Assembly: GCA_039545335.1 (NCBI GenBank)
Contig: BCIN01000003.1
Span: 868,001 to 932,000 of the forward strand
From: Kondoa subrosea
Taxonomy: Eukaryota
Direction: 5' to 3'
DNA: 64,000 bases
Position numbers and translations under genes: made by a program. Each line of letters begins with the position of its first letter. Within the stretch, counting starts at the first letter, position 1. Shown piece after piece: positions 21,878 to 38,834 of this stretch. Below the pieces are notes generated by a model. The model ran no database searches, was not told the DNA's origin, and was given only the letters and a program-made list of their open reading frames with translations.

Positions 21878-22509
21878 AGTTTTGAGAGAAGCGTTCTAGA
21901 TGGGTCGGAGCCGATCAAGCAGCATTTCGTGAGCTCAGCATCGTTACAGGTCAAGTTGCTTTCCGCACTCTCTTGTTCTCAAACGGTCCAGACTCAGTAA
22001 GCCATAGCGCGAGCTCTGAGCCAAGATACCTGTGTACCACGAGATCTAACAGCGGCGTTCCCCCGTTGAATCATTAAAACAGTATTGAATGGGATCCTAT
22101 GAACTTGCCAGGAGCGATACAACGACTGATGCTGTGCGGAGATTGGATCTGTTCTGCAATTACTGCTCTGCAGCTGCGGGAGCAAGATATTGCGAACGAT
22201 TCTTTACAAAGCCTTGCGATCAATCTGCACTGAATGCGATGTTCTTTTCAATGCTGCTCTTCTGATGCTTTGAGGCCTCAATTACTTCTCTGCCCATACG
22301 ACTTGCTACTTGTGCAGATTAGTCTCGTCAAAATCATCCAAACCCATTGTGCTCTCATATGCGTCGAAAATACATGTAGATGGTATCAAACAGTCCGTTT
22401 CTGAANCCCTCTTCTTTNTTTCCCTTCATTTCTTGTCCCCGCCATGCTATTCTACGTTTGCTCGAGCTTCATACATAAAGGGCTGTAAAGTTGTAACTTT
22501 GTTTGAGCG

Positions 22510-31971: not shown

Positions 31972-33132
31972 ATGTCTTTGGACGAAGTATTACGTCTGCT
32001 TATGTCCCCCAACATTGTCGATGACCTAGAAGCATTTACTGAGCTCTGCGTGGTAAGCATACAACGCTCCTTGGCCAAGTCGGCCCTTACACGCGAGCTT
32101 AGCATTGCCAAACGAAGCCACGGCACCGAGATGGTCGGAAAGTACATCTCTTCTGCAGTAGGACTTGCGCAGCGGCTCGAAAGTCACAAGTTCAACCAAG
32201 CAAGCTACAGCAGATACTCAATCCGACAAATTATGCAATCAAGTACGCAAGGCCTCTCGCCTAGTAGCAGACTCTCTAATTCGTTTGGCAGTCAAAATAA
32301 CATCTGTTTGCAATGTGACAGCAAACCTGTTCGAGCGGAAAGCGGACGTCCCTCAGATTTCTGCAGTTCCCAATGCCGAGAATTGATTTATGATCGAGGT
32401 CAGTAGGGTGAAGGTAGTTAAGCTTATACTGATTGTGTGACAGGACCTGTTCTATTCAAGCTCAACAACCAGTCATCTGCCTTCAAATCTGTCGATGCGC
32501 AGTTTCGCAGCGGGTGGAAGCATAGCTCAACTTGTCCTCAGATCGTTTCAGTCTACAAAGCCTTTGCACCCGCTCGTCTCGCCAAGTCATTCGCCTGGTA
32601 TTCGCACAAGATCGAGAATTTGCGGCATTGTAAAGCGAAGGGTCAGACCGTAGGCAACTTGCAGCGTCGTTGGCATGGAAGTCGACGAACTTGTACTATA
32701 GGCGATCTAGATCACGCCAGAGAAGCTCAATTCTGCTCTGATCCCGACTGTAGAGTCTGCAGGATCTTTCAGACTTCTTTCGCCCTTTCAAGGGCTGGTG
32801 AAAATACAAATTTCGTTCGATTTGGCATGGGAATCTACACTTCTGCTACGTCAAGCAAAGCCAACGACTACTCTACCTCTCCCAATTCTCCCTACAAAGC
32901 GATGGTTTTGTCGAAAGTTATTATCGGCAAAGCAGCGGTTCTCTACGCAGATCAGCGAGACCTCCAATCAGCACCAAAGGGCTATGACAGCGCTCAAGGT
33001 GAACCCGGAGGCTCCCTCAACTATGATGAGGTGGTAGTAAGTGATGTCAATAGATTTACTTCAGATTCTGATCTCGTCCAGGTATATGATGACAATGCTA
33101 TCAGACCTTTATACCTATGCATTTACGAATGA
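31972..33132 (+). CDS. PARP-like ADP-ribosyltransferase with two N-terminal C4 zinc-finger repeats (ART1)
   Basis: Four introns. CVHC..FCSRTC and CLQC..FCSSQC, then an ART fold with RRWHGS (32671), FGMGIYTSATSSKA (32821), GYDS and NYDEVVVY (~33022), i.e. an H-Y-E triad. Confidence 0.85.
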
Positions 33133-33229
33133 ACGTGTTTATTCTTCAGTGAGCTCAGTCTGTCAGTCACGATATCAGAGCTGATGAGTCTTCGAACAGA
33201 CGGGATTAGGGTGTATTGCACAGCAGATG

Positions 33230-34111
33230 TTACACATGCAAAAGGCTTGTTATCTCCAAAACTTCCTCTACAGTATCGTCTCCAGCTCTCAATCGATCTC
33301 TTGCTTGCATCAAGATCTTCCCTAATTCGTTTCGACCCAATCTATCCTGAAAGTCTCATTCAGTCGAAAGTGTGAGAGACAGTACAAACGCTTACAGAAC
33401 CGCATCCCCAGAATGCGTCTGTTGGTGAGTCTTCTATCAGTTCTGCATTTCCCGTTGACAACAAGAGGCGTTTGATCTCAGGATGTTGAGCGAGTTTAAC
33501 GTTGACCTTTAACAGTGTCAACATCGACTTAAAGCATCCGACAAGACCATACCACTGCGCGCATGATACCCACGTTGACCTCAAACCAGTCCAGTCTTCT
33601 AAATCGATCCAAATCTCTAGCTAAGCGCAGTGCATCCGAAGCTGTTGTTGTTTGCTGGATCTTCTGCAGTATTTTAGGATGGTCTTTGAATTTGCAGGCC
33701 TGATAAGCTGCCTCAGAAGTAGTGTAGACCGTATCATTGAAGCGAACTGAAGAAACCTATCAGCGAAGCAGAGTCGATCAAACCCAGCCATAACTTGCTT
33801 TGATGATCTGAAAAATTGGTGAACTCGTAGAGAGGATCCTCTCGATTGTAGAAGAGAATTGGCTCTTCGACAAGTGCCTGCTTCTCCGGTGCTTTCAATG
33901 GCCTTATTTCGCTGCGATTCTTTTTGACCGCTTGCTCCTCGAATCTCACCAACTCGCTTTTCCGCTTCTTTCCTGTTACAGCATGTTCCTGATAGCCTGT
34001 GCTCTGGCCATTAATCGCGTAGTGGCTCGAGTGCATCCGTTTTTCACCTTGAGGGAAAGCGTCCCCTACGGTGAAAGTTTCTTTCATCCACTTCTTGAGA
34101 CCGAATGGCAT
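33230..34111 (-). CDS. NADAR family protein (YbiA/DUF1768), putative ADP-ribosyl / N-glycosidic hydrolase
   Basis: Three introns (first is GC-AG, 33747-33798). ILFY..EFTNFS..YTTSEAAYQACKF..DW..IMR..KLAQHPEIKRLLLSTGNAELIEDSPTDAFWGCG..GRNELGKILM. Confidence 0.92.
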
Positions 34112-34280
34112 ATCAAGATGATGTGCTGTGCTTTTACGAATGCTCCAGACGTACTCGTTCCTGCTCAAGCCAGAAATTGCAATTTGCCCGCAGCGTTTGT
34201 TCTATTCTTTCTGCATAAATTCGTACTAGTCAATACTAGCCTATGTTAGCTTTTCTGCTCTTTGCTTTGTTTTGTACAGT

Positions 34281-35904
34281 ATGTGTCAACCCGACAAAGT
34301 TCGCAAAGCTACTACTCGCTGCGCGCATTGCAAGACTCTGCCTGTCCGACCGGAGTCTGTTGACTCTCGCATCTATTCCTCTTTTTGCGGTAAAGCCTGT
34401 GAAACCATGGCCGCTCAAGCTGCACAAGAAGACAAGAAATGTACTGTAAGTAGCTTATTGCAGATATGGCTTGTCTGATGCTAGACATAGCAATGTCAAA
34501 AACGCCTCGCTACAAAGAGAACAATTACGAGCATCCATTCTGCGCAAAGAGATGCGCTGGTCTGGCTCTCGCATCCGGAACAGCAGCGAGATCTGTCACA
34601 GCTACTGCTACTTCCAATGCGGTTGTCCCAAGCTCGACATGCACACTCTGCAAGAAAAGACCGACTTGGGCGAATAGAGCTGGAGTAAGATCGGCTTACT
34701 GCAGCAACAGATGTCGCCAGTACGTTTTGCTGGTAAGATGTGAGACACCTCGTTGAGCAATTACCAGACAAGCCGTGAAACAAGCCGGTATCGAAAGCTG
34801 CCTTCAGTGCAGAAGCAATCCAAAATATGAGGATATCAAGGGCAAGCTGTTAGACTTTTGCGGTATTAAGTGCCGGAATGCGGTTTCTGCCAAAGGTGAG
34901 TCTTCAACGATCCTTTGCTTTCGCGCAAATCTGATATATCGTTCGTAAGCTCCGCTCGTCTTAGAAGTTGATAAAGACTCGGTCAAGCACAAATCTGTCA
35001 AGGACCAGTTGTATGCCCTTCTGTTATACCTCTATTTTCCATTTCTAATATCCTCGAGACAGTACATCCCAATGGAAACACCCTACAGCCTGTCCAGAAA
35101 TGCTGCGTGTCCTCAAAGTCTATAGCAAACGAAGTATTGCTGTCGCGTACGATACATACCGAGACAGCATTGAAGCTGCTCGGGACTTTGAATCGCAAAA
35201 TCGGTCTAAAGGCAATGAGTGTCGTCGGTGGCACGGGTAAGCCCATCGTTTTTTGTGCAAGCCTCGAAGTGAAACATTGAACTACTAGGCGGGATTGTCA
35301 GCTGGGCGATGATCCGAAGGCGCCATTGATTTTCTGTCAAAGTCAGACATGCTCGTTGTGTTCTATTCTGAAAAGTATACGATGATCATCGACGCAGAGA
35401 TAACGATGCTAATTCATGTTTGCGTCACAGCTTCTTTCAATCTGGTACATTTCGGCAGAAAAACAAACTTTGGAAGGTAAGTCAATCAAACACACATTTC
35501 AGCATCAAATGTCTGAATCTTGCAAACAGATTCGGCACCGGTATTTATACCTCAGCTACTTCTTCGAAAGCTGCCGACTACATCAGCGGACACGGAAGTA
35601 GAACTACCCGAGCGTTCATCCTTGCTAAAGTCGTTTTGGGCCAAGCGAAAGTGCTTACTTCGGATAATATTGGTTTGAAGGCGCCTCCTAGCGGGTACGA
35701 CTCAGTCATCGGCAAGCCTGGAAGTATGCTGAAGTGAGTGCATGTCGTTCGTATTTTGAATTATCCAATCTCATCCTGGGACTTGTTAGTTACGATGAAG
35801 CGTAAGTGTGCACGTTCGTCATCAACCAAACTCATTGATGAGCCAGTATTGTCTACTCTAACGATGCAATTCTACCGCTTTACGTGGTCATTACCCAAAG
35901 GTGA
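34281..35904 (+). CDS. Second PARP-like ADP-ribosyltransferase with four C4 zinc-finger repeats (ART2); possibly frameshifted
   Basis: Nine introns. CAHC..FCGKAC, CTQC..FCAKRC, CTLC..YCSNRC, CLQC..FCGIKC, then GNECRRWHG, FGTGIYTSATSSKA, GYDSV and NYDEAIVY. Apparent 1-nt deletion near 34500. Confidence 0.8.
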
Positions 35905-36899: not shown

Positions 36900-38834
36900 T
36901 CAAGCATCTTCTTGGCGATCTTCTTTGCATCGCTCATCGATCTCGACTTCTTCAGGACCTTCAAAGGTGAACTCATTCTGTTGAACAATTTGTTCCATTT
37001 CTGTAACAGAAGGAGTCCAGCCATAGCAAGGATGCAGAGCTTCGAAAGCTTGAGTATGAGCAGGTGAATTGAAGTTCTGTTCGCGTAAGCGAGCCAAAAA
37101 GTTGCGATGAGCTGAAGTCCATTCAGTCAATCCACTGCCACTGCCTTTGTTTGCGTAGTAGGCTCTTGCACTGAAGAAAGCTTCTTGCAATGTTTTGTAT
37201 CCAGCATAGAGATTGGTGTTGGGATCAACTGTGTAGCATTTTAAGATTGCTCTCTGAAGTCCTGGGCCAGCTTGAATAGTTTTGATTCGCAGGTTGAGAT
37301 CAGCAATAATGACATTCTGAGCAGCTTCAGTAAGGTAGCTGAGGCTATCCATGTGCTCCTTGATTGCCTTGGGAAACTTGTCCGGGTGAGTAGCCTGCTT
37401 GACTCTGAGAAATTGCTTGTTGATGCTCTTGACTGCTGCTTCCAGTTCAGTTGCATTGGTCAAAGAGGGTTTAAGAAGAGCTTCAGCTTTGTCGCCGAAA
37501 AAGTGATTGACCACATCAACAGGCATAATCTAGAATCGAGCTCATCAATAAGAAGTCTCAAAACAAAGGGAAGTAATTTGACTCACAGCAGGTTTGTAGA
37601 TGGAAGTGAACATGCCGATAGCTTTCAAGTAGGCTTCGTTATCCTTTTCCAAACTCTTGATATCCTCCTTCAAATCGACCATTTCCTTATCCTTAGCGCT
37701 TGCAGCTACCTTTTGCGCCTTGTTTGCTTCTTCAGCTTTAACTAATTGCTGTTGAAGTTGCGCAATGAATTTCTTTGCCTCAACACTGGCTTTGGCTTGA
37801 GCGGATTGAGAAGAAGCGAGTGAGGCTTTGAGTTGAGTAATTTCAGCGTCTTTGCTTGAAAGAAGAGCTTCTTGTTCATTAATCTTCGTTCCGTTGGAGG
37901 CTAGAATGGATTGCTGAGAAGAGATGGTAGCTTGGTGTTTTTCGATTTCTGTGGAGTTAGTAGCTGATTCAATAGTGAGATTCGCAATTTGTGATTGAGC
38001 AGTTTCCGACTGAGCGACCAATTCGTTAACGCGAAGCTGCTTTACTTCGATCTCAGCTTGAGCAGTAAAGAGCTTTTGTGAAATATTGTGCTTGACTTTG
38101 CGGTATAGAGTGAAATCTCTGACAGTTTGTTGAAGTTCTGCTTTGTCGACCTTTTGAGCAGCAACGAAAGCAGCCAATTCCAATTGCTGTTCGAGATGAA
38201 TCACTTGAGACTTCAGTTCTTTGATCTCTTCCAAAGGAGGAAGACTGATTGGATTAAAGAAGACGTCCTTATCACCTTCTGGTTCATCCAAATCCATAGG
38301 GTCCGAAGATGATGCATCGTCTTCGCTTGAATCAGACTTTGATGGAGAAGAAGGAGAGGCAGGTGAAGAGCTTTCATCGATGGAAGGAGTGGGTGAAGCT
38401 TCCGCGATGATTTCTTGCTTGACCAATTCCTCTTCTATGGTGACTTCCTCTTCCTCTTCAATGGCTTCTGATTCGAACATGGCTTCAGATTTCTCATAGG
38501 CGACAAGGAAATTCTACATGAGTTCGCATCAGTACTGCATTCCTCAATTAATAAGGAATGTGGAACTTACAACGAAGTCGTAAACCGGTTGAACGTATTC
38601 GTTCTGGAAATCCATAGCATTCCATTCCTCGAGCCCAGCCAACACCGCATTGTACACAATCAAGCCACCAAATATGCTCATGACCAACAAGTAGACCAAA
38701 CCAGCGTTGTCCATTTTGGCTGGTTCAACGACTGTAGGAGCAACGTAGGCGAAATCGCGGATGCAGTTGTAGCGGAACGGATGGACTTGTAGATTACAGA
38801 TCTGAGCCAAAGGTGATGGCATGAGTGATTCCAT
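36900..38834 (-). CDS. Hypothetical protein: N-terminal TM helix, acidic linker, long coiled coil, J-domain-like HPDK segment
   Basis: ORFs 38544-38834, 37545-38480 and 36900-37526 joinable by short introns. LVYLLVMSIFGGLIVY TM segment; FLRVKQATHPDKFP. Confidence 0.6.

Follow-up and report, generated by a model that had tools for sequence, protein, structure and literature searches.

The DNA studied here is a stretch of 64,000 nucleotides from Kondoa subrosea (assembly GCA_039545335.1, contig BCIN01000003.1, positions 868,001 to 932,000; the whole stretch is called the window), and it carries at positions 31972-35904 a compact block in which two genes for PARP-like ADP-ribosyltransferases (ARTs), ART1 and ART2, enclose a gene for a NADAR protein. 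We propose that this block represents a conserved two-part ADP-ribosylation module of Basidiomycota, in which ADP-ribose would be written by the ARTs and erased by NADAR, the acceptor being N-linked and most probably a nucleobase, and we put the probability of this reading at roughly 0.55. The pairing of the two gene families is conserved over distant lineages and in differing orientations, which argues that they form a functional couple. NADAR hydrolases are widespread in eukaryotes, we know of no eukaryotic writer for the mark that they erase, and a pair that is conserved between Polyporales, many soil fungi and this fungus of small genome provides a specific candidate for that writer. In the literature, NADARs reverse the ADP-ribosylation of guanine and cytidine in vitro (PMC11543638, PMC12945103).

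Conservation of the ART-NADAR pairing in fungi

The pairing was studied in metagenome contigs, where a scan with the ART profile gave 78 loci, 58 of them non-redundant at 95% identity, in which NADAR was sought by tblastn with eight NADAR queries. Of the 78 loci 24 have a NADAR gene, and so do 21 of the 58 non-redundant ones; its distance from the ART gene never exceeds 1.3 kb. When the ART had the full family N-terminus, NADAR was present in 17 of 22 non-redundant loci, and this ratio was 14 of 17 when at least 700 nt of upstream sequence were also available. In sixteen loci the gene directly before the ART, in the same orientation, is NADAR, with a spacer of 28-178 nt between the NADAR stop and the ART start in 12 of the 13 loci examined; in five loci NADAR is divergent, and in nine a second, divergent NADAR stands ahead of the tandem pair. 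Polycistronic transcripts are documented in Agaricomycetes, in up to 8% of transcribed genes (PMC4503453), and the tandem NADAR-ART pairs may be co-transcribed. The ART and NADAR proteins of the window are at most about 45% identical to those of any metagenome locus, and the window pair is thus a separate lineage with the same pairing.

Five long related loci were scanned with Pfam, taking in 147 of 163 open reading frames, with those of locus L063 left out. NADAR was confirmed in L034, L062 and L077, among fungal neighbours such as KRE6 and BRE4. These three loci have upstream synteny in common (ArAE_2_N, BRE4), and L034 and L062 also share AAA_33 and KRE6 downstream. The AAA_33/SKI gene, P-loop kinase-like, stands directly 3' of the ART (L034 11032-11958, L062 11548-12180); it may be mere common synteny, and no similar gene follows ART2. 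Two other loci, L041 (2733-11050) and L067 (5147-11300), carry three ART copies and one NADAR each within 8 kb.

In named genomes, the ART search produced 83 matches with identities up to 46% over a limited range of protein lengths, all the named ones from Agaricomycetes. For NADAR, a word-index search with exon 2 in 'longer' mode gave no match, and an exhaustive representative search with this exon was used in its place, followed by a profile search of which the best 120 of 3,599 matches were listed. Co-location was judged by equal-sized contigs and near-consecutive identifiers. In this way, ART and NADAR were found on one contig, with accessions or locus tags 1-2 apart, in 7 named Polyporales species, several of them with two ARTs in the cluster: Sparassis crispa (ART SCP_1104100 and SCP_1104140, NADAR SCP_1104110), S. 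latifolia (ART KAL6299580 and KAL6299584, NADAR KAL6299583), Rhodofomes roseus (ART KAH9830115 and KAH9830123, NADAR KAH9830116 and KAH9830119, within 9 consecutive accessions; in a second assembly, ART EVJ58_g5435 and NADAR EVJ58_g5434), Irpex lacteus (ART KAI0799817, NADAR KAI0799815), I. rosettiformis (ART KAI0087590, NADAR KAI0087588), Laetiporus sulphureus (ART KZT01033, NADAR KZT01034) and Cytidiella melzeri (ART KAI0688515 and KAI0688516, NADAR KAI0688517). Among the matches listed, these are 7 of the 12 named species with a NADAR of the ART-adjacent clade; Phanerochaete sordida, two Mycena species, Phlebia brevispora and Crucibulum laeve have a NADAR of this clade and no ART among these matches, and many ART-bearing species have no NADAR among the best 120 of 3,599. 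An earlier reading of the window, made from its sequence only, had stated that a lack of conserved linkage in other genomes would speak against a module; the linkage does recur, in the 7 Polyporales species as well as in the metagenome contigs (21 of 58 non-redundant loci).

Domain organization of the ART proteins

ART1 (31972-33132, plus strand) is made of three exons (31972-32398, 32444-33036 and 33082-33132) separated by two introns of 45 nt. Its product, of 356 aa, starts with some 110 residues of unique sequence, followed by a single finger of CxxC..FCSxxC type (aa 112-135) and then by the catalytic domain, in which the H-Y-E triad is present and a C4 insert occupies aa 226-248. ART2 (34281-35904, plus strand) has ten exons (34281-34445, 34491-34719, 34768-34895, 34950-35010, 35063-35236, 35289-35374, 35431-35476, 35530-35733, 35790-35801 and 35847-35904), which encode four CxxC..CxxxC fingers N-terminal to a PARP catalytic domain, also with H-Y-E and the C4 insert. 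Pfam detected PARP (PF00644, cut-off 26.7) both in ART1 (4.1e-12, 46.5 bits) and in ART2 (1.1e-9, 38.5 bits), and YacG in ART2 (1.3e-6, 28.4 bits, cut-off 25.5); the YacG protein of E. coli binds gyrase. Both ARTs have the motifs RRWHG, G-x-G-I-Y and NYDE, a conserved insert of the form C-x(n)-C-x(n)-C-x2-C separates RRWHG from G-x-G-I-Y, and the family profile places their H, Y and E on the FHG, GIYF and YAEY motifs of tankyrase-1. Between ART1 and ART2 the identity over 247 aa is 42.5%, and in the ART tree both stand on long, unresolved branches.

When a profile of 40 family members was compared with solved proteins, the best matches were tankyrase-1 (5.7e-14), PARP4 (7.4e-13) and PARP3 (1.1e-10), with PARP2 and PARP1 matched more weakly, and a single-sequence search of the PDB with ART1 retrieved PARP4 alone (E 0.0083). 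The AlphaFold model of the Sparassis crispa orthologue (pLDDT 86.4) matched tankyrase-1 at 8e-16 with a target TM of 0.78. A model of ART1 positions 32446-33129 made with AF2, the second AlphaFold version, had a pLDDT of 77.1, with the in-frame intron read through and appearing as a low-confidence loop; in Foldseek it matched tankyrase-1 at 3.6e-12 (TM 0.67/0.73) and also PARP10. The Foldseek TM-scores of the ART models reach 0.78-0.80. For the N-terminal 142 aa of ART1, the best score in the ESM Atlas was 0.77, which we take as a lead only.

In six full-length homologues PF00644 was the sole Pfam family above cut-off (46-53 bits), and FCS-type models scored weakly on the N-terminal fingers. 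Neither these homologues nor the ART1 and ART2 pieces gave Pfam matches to WGR, PARP_reg/HD or BRCT, and in the six homologues there was no match to UBCc; the proteins of the family stop directly after the catalytic domain. The usual layout of the family is that of four fingers of two alternating kinds in a protein of roughly 340-390 aa. The sequence-only reading had called both genes PARP-like ARTs with an H-Y-E triad, without the accessory domains of PARP1 and with small zinc-finger repeats, and had proposed searches with the PARP (PF00644) and NADAR (PF08719) models; these searches gave both families above their cut-offs, and the calls were borne out by Pfam and by the alignment to tankyrase, except that the finger repeats hold for ART2 (four, with the frame broken at finger 2) and not for ART1, which has a single one. 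As judged from profile and predicted fold, the ART catalytic domains are tankyrase/PARP10-like, without helical regulatory domain; the C4 insert that they carry is of zinc-binding kind, and the N-terminal FCS/YacG-like C4 fingers probably serve to aim the enzyme.

The N-terminal part of ART2 deserves separate description. Its exon 1 resembles the family N-terminus and encodes finger 1, and exons 1 and 2 are one base out of frame across the sole canonical intron (34446-34490), disrupting finger 2. Among 58 in-frame splice combinations of these exons, none leaves finger 2 whole with consensus donor and acceptor. The contigs of two runs from one sample (depths 143 and 52) have identical letters at the locus, with 0 differences and 0 gaps, which makes an assembly slip unlikely, so that the frame break is probably real in this strain. 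In this copy fingers 1 and 2 may be in the course of being lost, or translation may begin at the ATG at 34493; the open frame from this codon has 331 aa, which include two fingers and the entire catalytic domain.

Two metagenome contigs, L001 (1-2279) and L002, are intron-less and cDNA-like, each with a whole ART reading frame, and in L001 the ART is preceded, on its own strand, by an unrelated reading frame of 285 aa whose end is about 115 nt away. These contigs suggest that the family is transcribed in nature, sometimes in multi-gene transcripts.

The NADAR protein

The NADAR gene (33230-34111, minus strand) has four exons (34111-33799, 33746-33553, 33506-33396 and 33346-33230), and its product of 244 aa consists of a basic N-terminal extension of 83 aa with a KKRK motif, followed by a YbiA-type NADAR domain. 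Pfam NADAR (PF08719, cut-off 35.1) was detected on two separate exons (2.9e-10 and 9.7e-11; 41.1 and 42.6 bits). The active-site residues are kept, namely the Glu of TSE, the Lys of ACKF, the Glu of LIED and the D-A-F-W-G motif, corresponding to E43, K50, E125, D130 and W133 of the P. nicotianae NADAR according to a profile alignment to 8bau and the residue list of PMC11543638. At the E125 position a Glu is found both in NADAR of the window and in six of six aligned ART-adjacent Polyporales NADARs. In the same paper, Glu at this position marks the YbiA subfamily and Asp the BC4488/DarT1-linked NADARs (PMC11543638). This Glu, together with E. coli YbiA being the best solved match, supports that NADAR of the window belongs to the YbiA subfamily.

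Its alignment to the ART-adjacent Polyporales NADARs is gap-free, with identities of 45-54%, and in a tree of 41 sequences it falls in a 12-row clade of ART-adjacent fungal NADARs (SH-aLRT 91), apart from ribA/ribD-type sequences. Riboflavin-pathway families were found by Pfam neither in the flanks of the window nor in the 147 open reading frames of the five long related loci, and the riboflavin-linked COG3236 type, with its ribA/ribD fusion or cluster, was discarded for the neighbourhoods scanned.

Several fungal proteins also appear to contain two NADAR domains in tandem. This was seen in the sequences of P0085 and P0086 (Phanerochaete sordida) and P0091 (Crucibulum laeve), and is presumed from protein length in P0156, P0158, P0160 and P0278 (P. 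sordida) and P0155 (Rhodofomes roseus). In P. sordida four NADAR-family accessions (GJE95754, 95755, 95789 and 95793) were confirmed on one contig of 234 kb, and two further NADAR-family proteins come from a contig of equal size (234 kb), with no P. sordida ART among the matches listed.

Gene models and surroundings of the locus

ART1 and NADAR are convergent, and between their stop codons (33130-33132 and 33230-33232, respectively) there is a gap of 97 bp (33133-33229); their 3' ends must abut or overlap. NADAR and ART2 are divergent, with 169 bp (34112-34280) between the ATG codons at 34111 and 34281, a region that is a candidate shared promoter and could provide common regulation; both gaps were read from the sequence. 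The first reading had placed three genes at these positions, in a tight sandwich with gaps of about 98 and 170 bp and among housekeeping sequence, and the spliced models with their Pfam domains, the measured gaps and the flanking genes agree with it in all three respects.

The models were built from the sequence itself, and this applies also to the splice sites, to the N-terminal part of ART1 and to the junction of exons 1 and 2 in ART2. The introns of these spliced eukaryotic genes are short (45-56 nt). The first NADAR intron (33747-33798, minus strand, 52 nt) is of GC-AG type (GCAAGT..CAG), and no GT donor yields an open frame matching the orthologues; introns 2 and 3 have 46 and 49 nt. The models are supported by the edges of the tblastn matches of homologues, which coincide with the modelled exon edges, and by the gap-free alignment of the spliced NADAR to its orthologues. 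On ART1, the high-scoring segment pairs of homologues cover 32305-33129. A codon-usage score, obtained with a small training set, was weakly in favour of the proposed frames. The locus was found in two DNA runs of one sample, the contigs of both runs totalling about 19 Mb.

The block is flanked by genes of ordinary kinds, which code for a HemK-like methyltransferase, eIF3c, OSCP, a PQ-loop protein and an amino-acid transporter. The gene next downstream of ART2 (36900-38513, minus strand) encodes an acidic, coiled-coil-looking protein without Pfam match and with no evident tie to the cluster. The GC content is even over the block, and a repeat search around it gave short two-copy matches only, with no bracketing repeats or mobile-element borders. 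As a control, tblastn with ART and NADAR homologues as queries found no match elsewhere in the 64-kb window. Two N letters, at 22406 and 22418, are distant from the block.

Proposed mechanism and alternative explanations

In the proposed mechanism, ART1 and ART2 would attach ADP-ribose to an N-linked acceptor, of which a nucleobase in DNA or RNA is the likeliest, and NADAR would remove the ADP-ribose so attached. The adjacency of the genes would be kept so that the eraser is produced whenever the writer is, through the 169-bp divergent promoter common to NADAR and ART2 and the abutting 3' ends of NADAR and ART1 in the window, and, in other fungi, through the operon-like arrangement in which NADAR precedes the ART on one strand at a distance of 28-178 nt; the module could serve in stress or in conflict. 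To our knowledge, the macromolecular substrates of NADARs are limited to ADP-ribose on guanine or cytosine. Since NADARs are N-glycosidases with base-linked ADP-ribose as substrate, the adduct made by the ARTs is probably N-glycosidic and possibly on a nucleobase. Tested NADARs, eukaryotic and YbiA-type ones included, strip ADP-ribose from guanine and cytidine and not from thymine (PMC11543638, PMC12945103, PMC10789625).

Several data weigh against this reading. Among the non-redundant metagenome loci with at least 4 kb of flank, NADAR was present in 12 of 26 and absent in 14 of 26, and it was present in only 4 of the 36 non-redundant loci whose ARTs are without the family N-terminus, being short-form or truncated. 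The cases of pairing are not all independent, for the metagenome loci on account of their common flanking synteny and for the named species because all of them are Polyporales, and adjacency in the named genomes was taken from the order of identifiers, which is an assumption. The frame break of ART2, which disrupts finger 2, also counts here. The nearest solved ART folds (tankyrase, PARP4 and PARP10) belong to enzymes that modify proteins or the phosphate ends of nucleic acids, and we know of no NADAR that cuts protein or phosphate-end linkages of ADP-ribose. Finally, NADAR of the window is without the Asp that marks DarT1-linked NADARs, its family profile gives 3.1e-40 for E. coli YbiA and 2.5e-18 for the P. 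nicotianae NADAR, and YbiA-type NADARs are known to cleave riboflavin-pathway intermediates (PMC11543638).

A more specific form of the proposal would have a PARP-family enzyme, aimed by its zinc fingers, modify guanine or cytosine in DNA or RNA with ADP-ribose, with the neighbouring NADAR as its dedicated antidote; this would be a fungal counterpart of DarTG1 used for genome defence, antiviral response or non-self recognition, and encoded in many mushroom-forming fungi as antidote-first, operon-like dicistronic units. We consider it tentative and, taken as a whole, rather unlikely.

Close to it, and doubtful, is a strict conflict module, analogous to DarTG1 in eukaryotes, where self-toxic nucleic-acid ARTs would be kept in check by NADAR in defence against viruses or transposable elements, in allorecognition or as a poison-antidote element. 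DarT1-NADAR is a proven toxin-antitoxin pair (PMC11543638), and the eraser gene adjoins the writer gene in our loci too, often directly upstream. The local arrays and paralogue expansions (the three ARTs with NADAR in L041 and L067, the two ARTs and two NADARs of R. roseus, the NADARs of P. sordida), the very long branches of the window ARTs in the tree and the broken frame of one ART copy, ART2, point in the same direction. Nevertheless, no repeats, mobile-element borders or odd composition were found at the block, the cluster stands among ordinary genes and looks vertically inherited, and the ART is a PARP and not a DarT, as NADAR is not of the DarT1-linked subtype.

An improbable alternative is that of metabolic housekeeping, in which a YbiA-type NADAR would cleave small molecules, either riboflavin intermediates or the NAD/ADP-ribose by-products of NAD use by the ART, and not the macromolecular product of the ART. 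The match to E. coli YbiA (3.1e-40), the Glu of the YbiA subfamily and the cleavage of riboflavin-pathway intermediates by enzymes of this type (PMC11543638) are what recommend it, but riboflavin chemistry explains poorly a tight and recurrent pairing with one ART family, no riboflavin gene was found by Pfam in the flanks of the window or in the five long related loci, and in the tree the fungal NADARs that adjoin ARTs are separate from the ribA/ribD type, as a clade of their own. Moreover, YbiA-type NADARs are able to strip bases of ADP-ribose (PMC12945103).

Very unlikely, finally, is that the ARTs are protein-modifying mono- or poly-ADP-ribosyltransferases whose fingers bind proteins, with NADAR linked to them by removal of an N-linked Arg or Lys adduct or by co-regulation, given that tested NADARs are described as acting specifically on ADP-ribose linked to a base (PMC10789625) and that no gene for a PARG, a macrodomain or an ARH enzyme turned up next to the ARTs in those loci that were scanned, even if the nearest solved relatives are all protein-modifying PARPs, H-Y-E is the triad of poly-ADP-ribosylating enzymes (PMC13720257) and the finger that Pfam names on ART2 is of the gyrase-binding YacG type.

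Comparison with known systems

Among PARPs, the ARTs described here resemble tankyrase, PARP4 and PARP10 in fold, NAD-binding motifs and H-Y-E, and like tankyrase they have no helical regulatory domain. They differ from them in having neither ankyrin repeats nor SAM, vWA or macro domains, the N-terminal part containing C4 fingers only, and these FCS/YacG-like fingers are in turn absent from the other three. With this N-terminal part and no ankyrin or SAM, the ARTs are not tankyrases proper. The zinc site of tankyrase lies after the motif equivalent to G-x-G-I-Y, whereas the C4 insert of the ARTs lies between the H-G and G-x-G-I-Y motifs. A survey of fungi found no tankyrase in them (PMC9688111). 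The fungal PARP1-type enzymes (clade 1) and PARP-Ubc (clade 6) share the PARP catalytic domain with the ARTs, but these are without WGR, helical regulatory domain (HD) and BRCT, which excludes clade 1, and they keep the catalytic Glu and gave no UBCc match, which excludes clade 6 (PMC13720257). On these sequence criteria, the zinc-finger PARPs are a third fungal PARP family beside those two.

The NADARs, in turn, have E. coli YbiA/COG3236 as their best solved match and share with it the conserved E, K, E and D-x-x-W-G. By contrast, the fungal ART-adjacent NADARs form a clade of their own, with basic N-terminal extensions, are sometimes tandem-duplicated in one protein, and stand beside PARP-type and not riboflavin genes.

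NADAR is reported to have been first defined by de Souza and Aravind in 2012. That work, as well as the supplements of PMC11543638 and of the preprint 10.64898/2026.07.25.740670, lay outside our literature search, in which no account of a PARP-NADAR cluster in fungi came up, in line with the earlier statement that no such clustered system was known as characterised in fungi. Two recent surveys of fungal ADP-ribosylation cover, in their accessible text, only PARP1-type enzymes and PARP-Ubc, with no mention there of a NADAR linkage (PMC13720257 and the preprint, on 534 fungi, whose accessible text does not contain the word NADAR).

The closest known system is the bacterial DarT1-NADAR pair (DarTG1), in which NADAR is a proven eraser of guanine-ADP-ribose (PMC11543638). 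In both cases a gene for an ADP-ribosyltransferase of the ARTD class adjoins a NADAR gene, and many of the fungal loci are head-to-tail with a very short spacer, operon-like. The fungal writer differs in being a eukaryotic PARP domain with H-Y-E, the C4 insert and N-terminal C4 fingers, and no DarT was among the matches listed in the Pfam, profile and fold searches with the ARTs. The fungal NADAR differs in being of YbiA type (Glu) and not of BC4488 type (Asp), as its profile matches also indicate, and in having no conserved DNA-binding extension. The fungal genes, known here from sequence, are also spliced and nuclear, and in the window they are convergent and divergent instead of tandem. The parallel with DarT1-NADAR that the sequence-only reading had drawn thus stands for the conserved adjacency and as an analogy, and does not extend to membership in that system. 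Taken together, the data point to a so far undescribed fungal ADP-ribose writer-eraser pair, which would add to the coupled pairs of ARTs and hydrolases and may exemplify operon-like gene pairs with coupled functions in Agaricomycetes.

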